Shown here piece after piece: positions 50-7,127 of a stretch of 27,935 nucleotides of DNA. The translations under genes were made by a program, and so were the position numbers. This DNA comes from a virus: UHGV virus genome UHGV-0119398, one strand, 5' to 3'. The notes below the pieces were generated by a model that was not told where the DNA came from, did not search any database, and worked only from the letters and a program-made list of their open reading frames with translations. Each line of letters opens with the position of its first letter. The stretch's first letter is position 1.

Positions 50-1099
50 TTATGCAACCTCTGCCGCCATATTGTCGCCAACATACAGCGATAACGGATT
101 AAGGGTTACAGCTTGTTCAAGGTGGTCAGGAGCAAAGTGTGCATACTTCATTGTTTCTCGAATATTGGCATGCCCGAGAATTTTCTGCAGTACCAGTATA
201 TTCCCGCCGTTCATCATAAAATGCGCACCAAAAGTATGACGCAAAACGTGCGTCTTCTGCCCTTCCGTCAATTCAATATTCGTTAGTTTGAGCATCTTCT
301 TAAACTCCTGATAGCAGGGTTTAAACATTCTGCCTTGACGTACGGACAACTCGTCGTACAGCCATTTAGGAATAGGAACTGTGCGATTCTTCTTACCTTT
401 GGTTTTGGTGAACGTCAGTTTATATGGAGAAAGTTGAGGGCGGGTCAATCTCTCCGCTTCCCCCCATCGAGCGCCGGTTGCAAGGCACACCTTAACAATC
501 ATGGTGAGGTCTTCTTTGCCGTATTGCTCGCAGGCTCGAAACAGCTCCGGGAACTGAGACAAAGTTAGCCAGGACATTTCTTTCTCAGCCTCTTTGAATA
601 CTCGGATCCCATCAAGTGGATTGGGTAGGCTCCACTCCCCTAACCGGCGGAGCTCATTAAACACTGCTTCTAGGTATTGTTGTTCGCGATTGACGGTTAT
701 AGGTTTGGCGATCCATTTCGAGGGGTCTTTATGATAACCGTTGTCTATTTCACCACGTAATCGACGGTCACGATAATGAGCCCAGTCTTTCGCGGTAAGG
801 CGAGATGCAATCGGGTCACCAAGCCCATTACATACGATTTGAAGCTTTGCTAACCTCGACTTACTGGCGACTAACGCTTGACCGTGCAAATTGTGCCAAA
901 GCTGAATAATCTCGCTTAAGCGTCGGCGGTCTTCTTTCTTGCCGAGCCACGGCTTATCTTCACTCTCGCTTTTGGTAAATGCTTCAAATGCCTCGGCCTC
1001 ACCTTTGGTATTGAATTGCCGACGTATACGCCGCCCTTCTCGACCATTTGGATAGAGTTCACACAACCATTTTCCACTTTTTTGTTTACTTACAGTCAT
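50..1099 (-). CDS. int: Tyrosine integrase (P2 Int-like)
   Basis: 349-aa ORF; strong resemblance to P2 Int as I recall it, including LATGARWGEA and the C-terminal HVLRHTFGAHFMMNGGNILVLQKILGHANIRETMKYAHF recombinase motif block. Confidence 0.93.
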   Translation of the reverse strand: MTVSKQKSGKWLCELYPNGREGRRIRRQFNTKGEAEAFEAFTKSESEDKPWLGKKEDRRRLSEIIQLWHNLHGQALVASKSRLAKLQIVCNGLGDPIASRLTAKDWAHYRDRRLRGEIDNGYHKDPSKWIAKPITVNREQQYLEAVFNELRRLGEWSLPNPLDGIRVFKEAEKEMSWLTLSQFPELFRACEQYGKEDLTMIVKVCLATGARWGEAERLTRPQLSPYKLTFTKTKGKKNRTVPIPKWLYDELSVRQGRMFKPCYQEFKKMLKLTNIELTEGQKTHVLRHTFGAHFMMNGGNILVLQKILGHANIRETMKYAHFAPDHLEQAVTLNPLSLYVGDNMAAEVA

Positions 1100-1123
1100 T
1101 GCGATACCGAGGCTAAAAGAAAA

Positions 1124-1462
1124 TTAATTACAAAGGGCTGTAGCGGCATCAATCACCGGTGAAATTGAAATTTTAACGCCGTCATACTCAGGGTCATCCT
1201 TCCATACGTCATCTAAGTTAGACCCCTCCAGCTTTCCTGATTTAACAGCATCTACCGCCATGCCATTCAGAGGATATCTATCATCAGTTTTGATGTCATA
1301 CACAAAAGCATAAGCACGGTTAACACATGATACTTTTGCCTTTTCAAAGGTTAGAGGCCACTTGTCACCATATGCAGCGCCGTCTATCTCTTTAAACTTC
1401 TCAGCGGCTATGGCTGAGGAAGAAAGTGCAATGCAGACTATCGCAAATATAAACTTTTTCAT
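1124..1462 (-). CDS. Small secreted protein of unknown function (candidate lysogenic-conversion moron)
   Basis: 112 aa; N-terminal Sec-type signal peptide MKKFIFAIVCIALSSSAIA/AEK; AAGGAG Shine-Dalgarno 7 nt upstream that overlaps the repressor stop codon; 24 nt upstream of int start on the same strand; AT-rich. Confidence 0.65.
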   Translation of the reverse strand: MKKFIFAIVCIALSSSAIAAEKFKEIDGAAYGDKWPLTFEKAKVSCVNRAYAFVYDIKTDDRYPLNGMAVDAVKSGKLEGSNLDDVWKDDPEYDGVKISISPVIDAATALCN

Positions 1463-1471
1463 TACTGCTCC

Positions 1472-2317
1472 TTAAACATGCTTTTCCAAAGTAAAAATAA
1501 CCGCACCTGATGGTGTGATATCTGAAATATTACATTCAAACTCAGCAGACTTATTTGATAACCTGACCTTTCCGCCTGGCAACCTGATTACGTCAAAAAC
1601 ATCGAGTGCGCCATCAATACCAATAAGCCAGCGACCATTTCCTATCTTCGAGTTAGAACTATCAACAAGCCAAGATGTGCTCACACCATCAATAAACACT
1701 AAATCATCAGTATTTGATGGAACCATAGATATATCAGGAGTCCAGCGTCCGATATCTTTGAGTTCGCCCGCCTCGAGGCGGCACTTTCTAATCGTTAAAG
1801 CATTTGCCGGTTCACCATCATTACTGTTACGCATCTGGCCTTTTCCGGTTGATAACCATTCTAACGATACGCCAGTATCAAGGGCGCAAGTGACAACCAC
1901 GTCACCGGGGAAAAAATCGCGTCTAACCCAAGTGCTTATAGTGCCGGAAGATATACCTAATAAATCTCCAAGCTCTTTTTGCAGAGTAAAACCATACGCA
2001 TCGAGAATCCGACGCAGAACCGCCCTCCCTCCATTTGCCATGATTTCATCATAGAGTTGCTTACCTTTAAGCTTAGTTTTCACCACTTCAGATCTTGCAT
2101 TTGCAAGCTCACCATTAATTAGCCATCGCAGGTCAGCTCCAGTATCAAGAGCACACTCAACGAAAACGTTGCTAGGGATTACGTTTCTAGCAAGCCAGCT
2201 ACTCACGTTGTTTGCATGTATGCCAAGCCTTTCGGCTAGTTCCTTTTGCTGCTTAAAGCCGTATGCAGAAAGGACACGTTCCAATGCGGCAGACGCATTA
2301 ACATCATTTTTAGACAT
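1472..2317 (-). CDS. Immunity repressor candidate with two tandem CI-type HTH domains and a C-terminal oligomerisation/S24-like domain
   Basis: Start set at ATG 2315-2317 (MSKNDV...), not the ORF-track start at 2506. Two internal ~60-aa repeats (LERVLSAYGFKQQKELAERLGI...CALDTGADLRWL and LRRILDAYGFTLQKELGDLLGI...CALDTGVSLEWL) resemble the 186-CI-type HTH domain; sits where the repressor sits in P2/186, divergent from the early operon. Confidence 0.8.
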   Translation of the reverse strand: MSKNDVNASAALERVLSAYGFKQQKELAERLGIHANNVSSWLARNVIPSNVFVECALDTGADLRWLINGELANARSEVVKTKLKGKQLYDEIMANGGRAVLRRILDAYGFTLQKELGDLLGISSGTISTWVRRDFFPGDVVVTCALDTGVSLEWLSTGKGQMRNSNDGEPANALTIRKCRLEAGELKDIGRWTPDISMVPSNTDDLVFIDGVSTSWLVDSSNSKIGNGRWLIGIDGALDVFDVIRLPGGKVRLSNKSAEFECNISDITPSGAVIFTLEKHV

Positions 2318-2338
2318 ATGACACCAACAAGAATTTTG

Positions 2339-2367
2339 TTTACAACCAAAATTTAGCGATCTATATT
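2339..2367 (+). promoter_or_regulatory. Candidate early lytic promoter (pR/Pe-like): -35 TTTACA, 17-bp spacer, -10 TATATT
   Basis: Hexamers at 2339-2344 and 2362-2367 in the 113-bp gap between repressor start and the Apl-like ORF, oriented toward the early operon. Confidence 0.4.
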
Positions 2368-2430
2368 GGTGCTCATCGACCAAGATGCACACCACTGCAC
2401 TACATTTCAAACAACAGGAGATAATGCGAT

Positions 2431-2802
2431 ATGTCAGATGCAAAATCAATCTCGACGCACGACTCGCAAAACTCACAAAATCAAACTGTGCTGCTAGATC
2501 CAACACAGTTTGATGCCATCGTTACCGCCATGCTGCCAGCTCTACAGACAATGATTCGCTCCGCTATGTCAGACACGATGACTGTGAAAGACTTCGCCGC
2601 TACTCGCGGTGTTAGCGAGCGTCTGGTCTGGCAATGGCTCGATGAGGGAGTCCTTCTCAAAGCTCCGACCAAAGACTTTTCCAACAAAGAGGAAGCCGGT
2701 AAACGAAGCCGCACCCTCGTAAACGTAAAAGCATGGCGCGACAAACTGACTCAACAAGCGATCGATTGTCGCTACATCGACCAGCGCACCGCTCTTAACT
2801 GA
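2431..2802 (+). CDS. Apl/Cox-like small HTH regulator/excisionase candidate (N-terminally extended)
   Basis: First gene of the rightward early operon, directly before cII; HTH-like segment TVKDFAATRGVSERLVWQWLDEG; AGGAG SD 9 nt before ATG 2431. True start could be an internal Met (2551 or 2578). Confidence 0.55.
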   Translation: MSDAKSISTHDSQNSQNQTVLLDPTQFDAIVTAMLPALQTMIRSAMSDTMTVKDFAATRGVSERLVWQWLDEGVLLKAPTKDFSNKEEAGKRSRTLVNVKAWRDKLTQQAIDCRYIDQRTALN

Positions 2803-2834
2803 ATTTGATTATGCAAGTTAGAGGGAACTTAACC

Positions 2835-3344
2835 ATGTTTGATTTTCAGATTTCCAAACATCCCCACTATGACGATGCGTGTCGTGCTTTCGCTCAACGT
2901 CACAACATGGCGAAGCTGGCCGAGCGTGCGGGTATGAACGTTCAAACGTTACGTAACAAGCTCAACCCGGAACAGCCTCACCAGTTCACGCCGCCTGAGT
3001 TATGGCTGCTGACAGACCTGACCGAAGACTCAACTTTAGTTGATGGTTTTCTGGCGCAGATTCACTGTCTGCCATGTGTACCGGTCAACGAACTGGCGAA
3101 AGACAAACTGCAGTCTTACGTCATGCGTGCTATGCGTGAGCTGGGAGAGCTGGCGAGCGGCGCGGTCTCTGATGAGCGACTGACCTCTGCCCGTAAGCAC
3201 ACCATGATTGAAAGCGTTAACTCTGGTATTCGCATGTTGTCTTTGTCGGCACTGGCGCTGCATGCGCGTTTGCAGACCAATCCAGCAATGACGAGTGTTG
3301 TCGATACCATGAGCGGTATTGGCGCGTCATTCGGTCTGATTTGA
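2835..3344 (+). CDS. cII: CII-like lysogeny establishment activator (186 CII family)
   Basis: Start moved to ATG 2835 (MFDFQISKHPHYDDACRAFAQRHNMAKLAERAGMNVQTLRNKL...), giving 169 aa; near-identical to 186 CII as I recall it; GAGGG SD upstream. Confidence 0.85.
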   Translation: MFDFQISKHPHYDDACRAFAQRHNMAKLAERAGMNVQTLRNKLNPEQPHQFTPPELWLLTDLTEDSTLVDGFLAQIHCLPCVPVNELAKDKLQSYVMRAMRELGELASGAVSDERLTSARKHTMIESVNSGIRMLSLSALALHARLQTNPAMTSVVDTMSGIGASFGLI

Positions 3345-3351
3345 GGTGCTT

Positions 3352-3552
3352 ATGCTGAAAAATGAACCATCATTCGCGTCTCTGCTAGTTAAACAAAGCC
3401 CCGGCATGCACTTCGGCCACGGCTGGATCGCAGGTAAGGACGGCAAGCGCTGGCACCCGAGCCGCTCACAGGCTGATTTACTGGCTGACCTGTCCACCAA
3501 AAAACAGGGGAAATCATGGCTATCGAAGCTGTTTCCGCGAATGTTCCGCTAA
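3352..3552 (+). CDS. Small early protein, unknown function (occupies the position of 186 fil)
   Basis: 66 aa from ATG 3352 (ORF track begins at GTG 3346); GAGG SD 5-6 nt upstream; function assigned by position only. Confidence 0.45.
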   Translation: MLKNEPSFASLLVKQSPGMHFGHGWIAGKDGKRWHPSRSQADLLADLSTKKQGKSWLSKLFPRMFR

Positions 3553-3854
3553 AGGCTGGCGAGCGTCTGGCTGGTCTCAATCACATAGCTGAATTACGCG
3601 CGAGATATTGGGGTGATAGCTGGAAAGAGGTTGAGCGCTTTGTCGATGATATGCGCGATAAACGCGATCCACAATTTGAAGAAAATACTCGGGCGCTGGC
3701 CGCTATTTTCTTTCTGGCAAAAATACCGGCGGCTCGTCATGAGCTCGAATTAAGTGAGCTGACTACTGACGAGAAAAAAGCATTGATTACAGCAATGAAT
3801 CATTTTCGTGCAGTGGTGAGCTTATTTCCAAAACGGCTAACCATGCCGAATTAA
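3516..3854 (+). CDS. Hypothetical early protein
   Basis: 112 aa; GGGGA SD before ATG 3516; overlaps the end of the preceding small ORF in another frame; early-operon position. Confidence 0.6.
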   Translation: MAIEAVSANVPLKAGERLAGLNHIAELRARYWGDSWKEVERFVDDMRDKRDPQFEENTRALAAIFFLAKIPAARHELELSELTTDEKKALITAMNHFRAVVSLFPKRLTMPN

Positions 3855-6668: not shown

Positions 6669-6688
6669 TACTGTATAAATATACAGTA
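6669..6688 (+). promoter_or_regulatory. LexA (SOS) box TACTGTATAAATATACAGTA overlapping a promoter (-35 TTGCCA at 6655-6660)
   Basis: 19 of 20 match to the E. coli LexA consensus TACTGTATATATATACAGTA; sits about 20 nt upstream of the ORF at 6708, the architecture of the 186 tum promoter. Confidence 0.75.
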
Positions 6689-6707
6689 ACCCTGTGGGAG
6701 GGATTTC

Positions 6708-6890
6708 ATGGTTGGCGAACATTTCAGCCGAACGCAGCAAAAGTGGGCTTGTGTGCAATTTATTGCCGAGGTATCTCTGATTGCAAACTGCAAGCCATCA
6801 GACTTAAAGCTCGCGCTCACTCTCATTGCAGACCTAGCAAACAGCGAAAATAACGAAACCGAAGATGATAATTTTTATAAGGCTGATTAG
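6708..6890 (+). CDS. SOS-controlled small protein, possibly the N-terminal portion of a Tum-like antirepressor
   Basis: 60 aa; GGGAGGG SD; directly downstream of the LexA box; ends in TAG, in frame with the DinI-like ORF that follows one codon later. Confidence 0.55.
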   Translation: MVGEHFSRTQQKWACVQFIAEVSLIANCKPSDLKLALTLIADLANSENNETEDDNFYKAD

Positions 6891-6893
6891 ATT

Positions 6894-7127
6894 ATGAGAA
6901 TCAATATCACGTTGGATAAAGAGCAAAAAATTAGTCAGGCAACGTTGGATGCGCTTGAGGCTGAGCTGTACCGCAATCTGCAACCTATTTACCCAAAGAC
7001 CGCTATCCGCATTCGCAAGGGCTCCGCAAATGGCGTTGAGCTAAGCGGTTTGAAACTGGACGAAGATAAAAAACGAGTAATGGAAATCATGCAGCAGGTA
7101 TGGGAGGACGATAGCTGGTTGCATTAA
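6894..7127 (+). CDS. DinI-family protein (Tum C-terminal domain-like)
   Basis: 77 aa; MRINITLDKEQKISQATLDALEAEL...KKRVMEIMQQVWEDDSW aligns with E. coli DinI as I recall it. Confidence 0.8.
   Translation: MRINITLDKEQKISQATLDALEAELYRNLQPIYPKTAIRIRKGSANGVELSGLKLDEDKKRVMEIMQQVWEDDSWLH

Follow-up and report, generated by a model that had tools for sequence, protein, structure and literature searches.

The cI gene encodes a repressor with two related DNA-binding domains

We analyzed a 27,935-nt stretch of viral DNA (UHGV virus genome UHGV-0119398), here called the window, and focused on the gene at positions 1472 to 2317. Its product is CI, the immunity repressor of a prophage that resembles PSP3 and falls within the 186/Eganvirus group of P2-like prophages. 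The open reading frame (ORF) of 281 amino acids (aa) lies on the minus strand, with its ATG at 2317 and its stop codon at 1472 to 1474, and the translated frame is uninterrupted. A longer ORF of 344 aa can be read from a GTG at 2506. We rejected it because it overlaps the promoter pR and the start of orf30 and because annotated phage homologues begin at or near the ATG (the SW9 repressor is 281 aa). The gene and its domains, among them two helix-turn-helix (HTH) domains, are as follows.

1472 to 2317, minus strand: cI, PSP3-type immunity repressor of the 186 CI family, 281 aa
2102 to 2296, minus strand: HTH1, aa 8 to 72, fast evolving, candidate reader of immunity specificity (domain hidden Markov model [HMM], identity, and the nonsynonymous-to-synonymous ratio pN/pS)
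2036 to 2062, minus strand: interdomain linker helix KGKxLYDEIM, aa 86 to 94, directly N-terminal of HTH2, motif conserved (AlphaFold 2 [AF2] model)
1835 to 2029, minus strand: HTH2, aa 97 to 161, nearly invariant, counterpart of the 186 CI N-terminal domain (alignment with PDB 2fjr)
1475 to 1792, minus strand: C-terminal domain, aa 176 to 281, 186-CI-type association domain with a predicted LexA/lambda-CI-like beta fold, lacking a catalytic dyad

The Pfam family Phage_CI_repr (PF07022) matched two stretches of CI (whole-protein E value, 1.5e-47), and Phage_CI_C (PF16452) matched aa 176 to 269 (E, 4e-19). The domain HMM placed the repeats at aa 8 to 72 and aa 97 to 161, and the two align without gaps over 61 residues at 51% identity (E, 3e-24). 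CI also belongs to PHROG 4, transcriptional repressor (E, 6e-62). An earlier note on this DNA, made from the sequence alone, had described two related DNA-binding repeats of ~60 aa in one polypeptide. That description holds: every peptide it quoted is present, Phage_CI_repr was found twice, as it expected, and both repeats are read in the one frame that is open from the ATG at 2317. The C-terminal domain, with PF16452 and the 2FKD fold, is that of the 186 CI family and not an unrelated one.

Among the relatives, only coliphage 186 CI has a solved structure. The 2fjr entry aligned with aa 100 to 274, that is, with HTH2 and the C-terminal domain (E, 4e-21). 186 CI (PDB 2FJR and 2FKD) has one HTH per chain, whereas the window CI has an extra N-terminal HTH and a linker of ~25 aa. 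The AF2 monomer model contains three folded domains, with disordered linkers at 72 to 81 and 163 to 171 (mean predicted local distance difference test score [pLDDT], 75). Nilsson et al. noted in 2011 that PSP3 CI is longer than 186 CI and credited this to "a longer C-terminal domain" (PMC3448106). We found that the extra length is an additional N-terminal HTH and is not C-terminal.

The two-HTH architecture is widespread

A protein search with CI gave 1005 matches, and the best 120 were all 270 to 289 aa long with the identical domain set. Both repeats were present in one chain in all 120 of these listed homologues (58 to 92% identical) and in 51 genomic loci. Thus, the tandem repeat is not a frameshift or fusion artefact. 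The nearest phage repressors are those of the Salmonella phages SW9 and SI22 (91.5% aa identity), and identity was 67 to 73% to those of PSP3 (73%), SEN1, 613R3, Midge, and Klebsiella RCIP0057. Approximately 20 of 5426 complete Escherichia coli genomes carry the region (best nucleotide identity, 98.8%), where the gene is annotated as "phage repressor protein CI." When the C-terminal domain alone was searched against 50%-identity cluster representatives, we obtained 71 clusters, and all nine representatives of 285 to 313 aa had two PF07022 matches plus PF16452. The 51 loci (one genome per species) came from Enterobacter, Kosakonia, Serratia, Pectobacterium, Dickeya, Lonsdalea, Erwinia, Brenneria, Mixta, and others. 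Two loci carry labels from other bacteria: L038, labeled Pseudomonas lundensis, has the immunity region of a Serratia-type prophage, and L056, labeled Vagococcus sp., has a Kosakonia-type region. Both are probably contaminated or mislabeled assemblies.

The gene is not new; it belongs to a large, already annotated group of PSP3-type repressors. Those of PSP3 (NP_958086), SW9, SI22, SEN1, Midge, and RCIP0057 share the full-length architecture at 67 to 92% identity, and the operon, orf30, and the split tumA/tumB of the PSP3 group are all as in the window. We found no published functional study of these six repressors and, in the accessible literature, no description of the tandem-HTH arrangement. 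This variant of the 186 repressor, and above all the split between a hypervariable and a frozen HTH described below, appears to be uncharacterized.

In a neighbor-joining tree of HTH domains, the PSP3-type HTH1s formed one long-branched clade, and the HTH2s formed a short-branched clade that included genuinely single-HTH repressors. A second two-HTH lineage of the 186 CI family was found in the Klebsiella Elveevirus type, whose members are 311 to 313 aa (P0166; L007, 1417 to 2358; L217, 1501 to 2436). Its two HTHs match the 186-like ANRYxRDxFPxDW type and are each conserved across the three members. In the tree, both HTHs of this type (P0166 and L007) fell in the 186-like clade, so the tandem arrangement arose at least twice.

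HTH1 and HTH2 evolve at different rates

We compared the regions of CI across 45 nonredundant two-HTH proteins or loci, with the following results.

HTH1: mean pairwise identity, 61%; pN/pS, 0.33
Linker 1: mean pairwise identity, 47%; pN/pS, 0.51
HTH2: mean pairwise identity, 84% (minimum, 72%); pN/pS, 0.14
Linker 2: mean pairwise identity, 14%
C-terminal domain: mean pairwise identity, 50%; pN/pS, 0.45

Of all parts of the two-HTH CI, HTH2 is under the tightest constraint, and HTH1 is variable across the relatives. Synonymous differences were saturated in all regions, HTH2 included (pS, ~0.73), so HTH2 has been frozen by selection, and recent recombination is ruled out as the source of its conservation. 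The variation in HTH1 was focused on the turn and on the residues that open the recognition helix, where the segment reads IHANNVSSW in the window, IAKHSVSGW in PSP3, and VPSNSVSTW in Midge. In the DNA, the divergent positions form one uninterrupted segment, which comprises the -35 region of pR with its arms and cI codons 1 to ~95. It is bordered on the orf30 side by a block that is 87 to 100% identical among heteroimmune phages and on the HTH2 side by DNA that is 80 to 88% identical.

Candidate operator elements at pR

The DNA upstream of cI contains the following elements.

2339 to 2367, plus strand: candidate early lytic promoter pR, with -35 TTTACA at 2339 to 2344, a 17-nt spacer, and -10 TATATT at 2362 to 2367 (consensus scan, 10/12)
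2332 to 2353: inverted repeat AATTTTG-N8-CAAAATT around the -35, candidate HTH1 half-sites
2356 to 2361: conserved box (T/A)GCGAT(C/T) in the last spacer positions, abutting the -10 (GCGATCTA covers 2356 to 2363), candidate HTH2 half-site

This sigma-70 promoter is directed into orf30, and its geometry was equal in 40 of 45 related loci. The arms flanking the -35 varied together with HTH1: they were 77 to 90% identical between loci whose HTH1 helices were at least 85% identical and 33 to 37% identical between loci whose helices were less than 60% identical. Between loci with unlike HTH1 helices, the box was 70% identical and the -35 was 99% identical. The CAAAATT half-sites are kept in L010, which has the same HTH1 helix, and in L009, which has a related one, while the surrounding DNA has diverged; L009 has CAAAATTAATTTTTG and, at a distance of 22 bp, another CAAAATT. 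The Pectobacterium and Brenneria types have palindromes of 24 to 32 bp, such as TTTTCATAT-TTACAG-ATATGAAAA. Except for SW9 and SI22, the PSP3-group phages do not share the recognition helix of HTH1 or the pR arms with the window. They are presumably heteroimmune to the window phage, and SW9 and SI22 look homoimmune to it.

Across 40 loci, the CGAT of the spacer box had an information content comparable to that of the -35 and -10 hexamers. At this position, RNA polymerase requires no specific bases except a TG, which is absent here. The box is retained in Serratia prophages that have another first lytic gene and another block downstream. A 14- to 16-bp spacer palindrome (AATCGCATTTGCGATT, TCGCATTTTGCGA, or ATCGCAATTGCGAT) is present in the Kosakonia, Serratia, Pluralibacter, and Erwinia types, with the box as its right arm. 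The Dickeya and Lonsdalea loci, in which the HTH2 helix starts with IAPG and not ISSG, do not have the box.

The genuinely single-HTH repressors of the HTH2 clade (P0128 type, 196 aa, ~30 viral contigs) have the recognition helix of HTH2 (SSGTISTWVRR) and the same C-terminal-domain family. They lack HTH1 and linker 1, no in-frame HTH lies upstream, and they start with a helix (MQLDELEGGK) that resembles the linker helix at aa 86 to 94. At their loci, the complete palindrome ACTTGCAAATGCAAGT, the candidate operator, fills the 17-nt spacer from TTGACA to TAGATT, where the window has its GCGATC box.

Two other explanations for the box were considered. Dam methylation is ruled out as the cause of the conserved spacer GATC, since GATT stands there in one-quarter of the loci and GATC is missing from the single-HTH relatives. 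The orf30 product is an unlikely reader, as the Serratia loci keep the box with a different first lytic gene. When the 28-kb window was scanned for additional occurrences of the composite operator or of the inverted repeat formed by the arms, nothing rose above chance; the late-activator (ogr/B) promoter lies outside the window. Simple repeat finding over positions 1000 to 3600 gave no operator-like families.

Proposed induction through a LexA-controlled antirepressor

The window also contains the genes expected for induction by an antirepressor.

6671 to 6686, plus strand: perfect LexA box CTGTATAAATATACAG upstream of tumA (read from the sequence)
6708 to 6890, plus strand: tumA, 60-aa antirepressor homologue, 98% identical to PSP3 TumA
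6894 to 7127, plus strand: tumB, DinI-family protein (PF06183; E, 7e-24)

The LexA box consensus is CTGT-N8-ACAG. The tum locus (6671 to 7127) is split into tumA and the DinI-family tumB behind this box, as reported for PSP3 and Fels-2. TumA matched no Pfam family and was placed in PHROG 1993 ("unknown function") only. Antirepressor activity has been attributed to PSP3 tumA (personal communication cited in PMC3121763) and is reported for 186 Tum, and 186 CI is inactivated by an antirepressor (PMC3121763).

We found TumA homologues in 44 related loci. TumA was 95 to 98% identical in phages of four different HTH1 types, and its identity correlated with that of the C-terminal domain (rho, 0.70) and HTH2 (rho, 0.57) more than with that of HTH1 (rho, 0.34). 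This argues that the antirepressor interface lies outside HTH1.

A model in which the two HTHs divide DNA recognition

We propose that CI shuts off pR through a composite operator covering the promoter, and we estimate the probability of the model as a whole at roughly 0.55. According to this model, the variable HTH1 domains would read the immunity-specific inverted-repeat arms flanking the -35, which in the window are AATTTTG and CAAAATT. The conserved HTH2 would read the (T/A)GCGAT(C/T) half-site beside the -10 and contribute affinity and occlusion of RNA polymerase, with no role in specificity. The subunits may associate through the C-terminal domain as in 186 CI, with dimers building a wheel. 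186 CI oligomerizes through this domain, and its FL, pR-pL, and FR sites have been described (PMC3675496). HTH1 and the neighboring operator arms would form one contiguous divergent DNA cassette. Immunity could be changed or exchanged with this cassette, leaving HTH2, the association domain, and the contact surface for the antirepressor as they are. Induction would not involve RecA-stimulated self-cleavage; instead, SOS cleavage of LexA would derepress tumA, and TumA would bind CI outside HTH1 and free it from the DNA. The ancestor may have been a single-HTH repressor of the HTH2 type on a spacer palindrome. An N-terminal HTH added later would have become the specificity reader for new -35 arms, with HTH2 kept as the common anchor on the spacer box.

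Several points weigh against this model. The window has one HTH2-type half-site, so that in a symmetric dimer the second HTH2 would have no obvious place to bind. No analogues of the flanking FL and FR operators of 186 were recognized in the window. HTH1 and the arms are adjacent, and their covariation could reflect linkage and not recognition. Each operator assignment is a comparative one. The wheel is postulated on the strength of ~25% identity to the 186 C-terminal domain, and the AF2 model (predicted template modeling score, 0.41) is uninformative on the arrangement of the CI domains. Finally, both HTHs look conserved in the Elveevirus-type lineage (n = 3), so the asymmetry is no general rule.

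The main rivals are that HTH2 serves for docking only and that the two heads have different sets of sites. In the first, HTH2 would be a surface for docking a protein (TumA, the C-terminal domain, or a host factor) and would not read DNA, and HTH1 alone would bind the inverted repeat as a conventional dimer. This would suit the finding that phages differing in HTH1 type share a single type of TumA, the correlation of TumA identity with HTH2 identity, and the form of the window operator, a clean HTH1-type inverted repeat with just one box half-site. However, HTH2 is far more conserved (72 to 100%) than TumA (29 to 98%), and TumA tracks the C-terminal domain better than it tracks HTH2. In addition, the CGAT box and the spacer palindromes of other immunity types require a reader, and the single-HTH relatives, which have a palindrome at this position, must use an identical recognition helix to bind DNA. 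We consider docking alone unlikely.

In the second rival, HTH2 would be the main reader of pR, and HTH1 would read another class of sites (distal flanking sites, the late-activator promoter, or the attachment region) or the DNA of another phage, giving two regulons. 186 CI recognizes two distinct sequence classes and uses distal sites. Both this and the FL, pR-pL, and FR sites of 186 (PMC3675496) favor this view, as do the alignment of 186 CI to HTH2 plus the C-terminal domain and the presence of single-HTH repressors in the HTH2 clade. Against it, the variable DNA lies exactly at pR, beside the HTH1 coding sequence; the CAAAATT half-sites flank the -35; and the 28-kb window, which does not include the ogr/B promoter, holds no extra arm copies. 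We regard two separate regulons as somewhat less probable still.

A broader claim can be made tentatively and with less confidence than the composite-operator model itself. In a large clade of the 186 type, DNA recognition may be split between a hypervariable head that lies beside its own operator arms, as a swappable immunity cassette, and a frozen head on a shared box in the pR spacer. Two linked HTH units per chain that read adjacent subsites are also found in POU domains and in AraC/MarA, where composite or asymmetric sites and a division between specificity and affinity are possible. We use these as an analogy: they are unrelated to CI in sequence and context and are mostly monomers, whereas CI would oligomerize through its C-terminal domain.

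The 186 switch is among the few phage switches understood at the structural and single-molecule levels, and its repressor is a 14-mer wheel with a single HTH on each chain. Its two-HTH sister group is widespread in E. coli, Salmonella, Klebsiella, Enterobacter, Serratia, Pectobacterium, and others, and the two heads evolve at very different rates. This raises the question of how immunity specificity is encoded and diversifies. If the composite-operator model is true, it explains how immunity can change without alteration of oligomerization or induction. The anchor head, the association domain, and TumA would then be common to heteroimmune phages, and mixed oligomers and cross-induction could arise between coresident prophages. 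The repressor could also be a scaffold for orthogonal repressors made by exchanging one 65-aa domain, a modular family for synthetic biology. If the model fails, CI is an ordinary annotated repressor with an unexplained extra domain.

The C-terminal domain is probably not a working S24 peptidase

In the AF2 model, the C-terminal domain (pLDDT, 75 to 89) has the LexA/S24 beta fold of lambda CI and signal peptidase. Peptidase S24 (PF00717) did not match CI at an E value of ≤1, and hhalign of a 32-member family profile against E. coli LexA gave a probability of 4%. Among the 32 diverse family members, the invariant residues of this domain are one Gly, one Pro, and one Cys. Neither Ser nor Lys is conserved at the candidate dyad positions, which were matched to LexA by motif: residue 197 is Ser in 9 of 32 members, residue 213 is variable, and residue 244 is T, S, I, A, or E. 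An AG dipeptide is present at residues 183 and 184 of CI; in the 2fjr alignment, 186 CI does not have it.

These data bear on a third explanation, in which the C-terminal domain is a working S24 autopeptidase and RecA-stimulated self-cleavage between Ala183 and Gly184 inactivates CI. The predicted LexA-like fold, the position of the AG dipeptide in a strand with Gly184 conserved in 29 of 32 members, and the local similarity to a LexA motif that the earlier note saw all speak for it. Nevertheless, without a conserved dyad or a sequence-level S24 signal, we give it very little credence. In addition, it is an antirepressor that inactivates 186 CI, the nearest relative of known structure (PMC3121763), and a LexA-controlled tumA is present. 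A functional autopeptidase is effectively excluded. LexA, lambda CI, and UmuD have the Ser-Lys dyad and the S24 signal; the window CI has neither, and RecA-dependent cleavage is not expected. The 186 C-terminal domain also differs from these proteins in building a 14-mer wheel and not a simple dimer.

The earlier note had tentatively read the domain as S24-like but noncleaving, which in its view fitted induction by a Tum-like antirepressor in place of RecA. The first claim is supported at the level of the fold: the predicted fold and the missing dyad agree with it, and no sequence-level S24 signal was found. The second is consistent with the LexA box, tumA, and the DinI-family gene, and TumA would be the protein that acts on CI.

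The least probable explanation, that the tandem repeat is an artefact of two merged adjacent genes, a wrong start, or a decaying prophage gene, has in its favor the longer GTG start in the mechanical ORF list and nothing else that we found, and it is effectively excluded by the uninterrupted frame, by purifying selection on every CI domain, and by its recurrence: more than 100 listed homologues agree with CI in length and architecture, as do the repressors of isolated phages (among them SW9, SEN1, Midge, and RCIP0057) and of ~20 complete E. coli genomes.

Prophage context and neighboring genes

The window is a PSP3-like Eganvirus prophage. The minus strand carries, in order, int, a DUF2511 gene, and cI, and the plus strand carries orf30, cII, fil, and replication gene A, followed by tumA and tumB. 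cI thus has the position of an immunity gene, upstream of int and divergent from an apl/cox-like gene, cII, and fil. The neighboring genes are as follows.

50 to 1099, minus strand: integrase gene int, lysogenic operon
1124 to 1462, minus strand: DUF2511 gene, lysogenic operon (the remainder of the operon after cI spans 50 to 1462)
2431 to 2802, plus strand: orf30-type first lytic gene in the Apl/Cox position, 123 aa (PHROG 3554; homologue of PSP3 gp30)
2835 to 3344, plus strand: cII-like establishment activator (PF06892; E, 1.7e-47), with the start set from the length of PSP3 cII

The gene order of the lysogenic operon matches that of PSP3, SW9, SEN1, and Midge. In these phages, the DUF2511 (PF10709) ORF between cI and int is also conserved; it is 112 aa long with an N terminus like a signal peptide. 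The gene may be a moron, or one for lysogenic conversion, that the prophage expresses.

The first lytic gene is apl in 186 and the PSP3-type orf30 in the window. The orf30 product had no Pfam match and a weak PHROG match to a Cox-like excisionase/repressor (E, 1.3e-4). Between pR and the orf30 start, two direct TGCAC repeats lie 10 bp apart (2386 to 2390 and 2396 to 2400). They look like sites for a recombination directionality factor of the 186 Apl kind, and Apl of 186 binds between pR and pL (PMC7498355).

The block from 2370 to 2480 is nucleotide invariant in seven heteroimmune phages. Within it, two weak candidates for the leftward cI promoter, pL, face pR (2403 to 2448). Both are on the minus strand and were found by eye below the scan threshold: TTGATT-17-CATTAT, with its -35 at 2443 to 2448, and TTGAAA-17-CATCTT, with its -35 at 2403 to 2408.

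Inside orf30, an inverted repeat at 2480 to 2514 (ATCAAACTGTGCTG / CAACACAGTTTGAT) has 7-mers approximately two turns apart and is less symmetric in SW9 and PSP3. We ruled it out as a CI operator because the DNA there is common to heteroimmune phages and because it resembles the half-sites of 186 CII. This repeat may mark the CII-activated establishment promoter pE.

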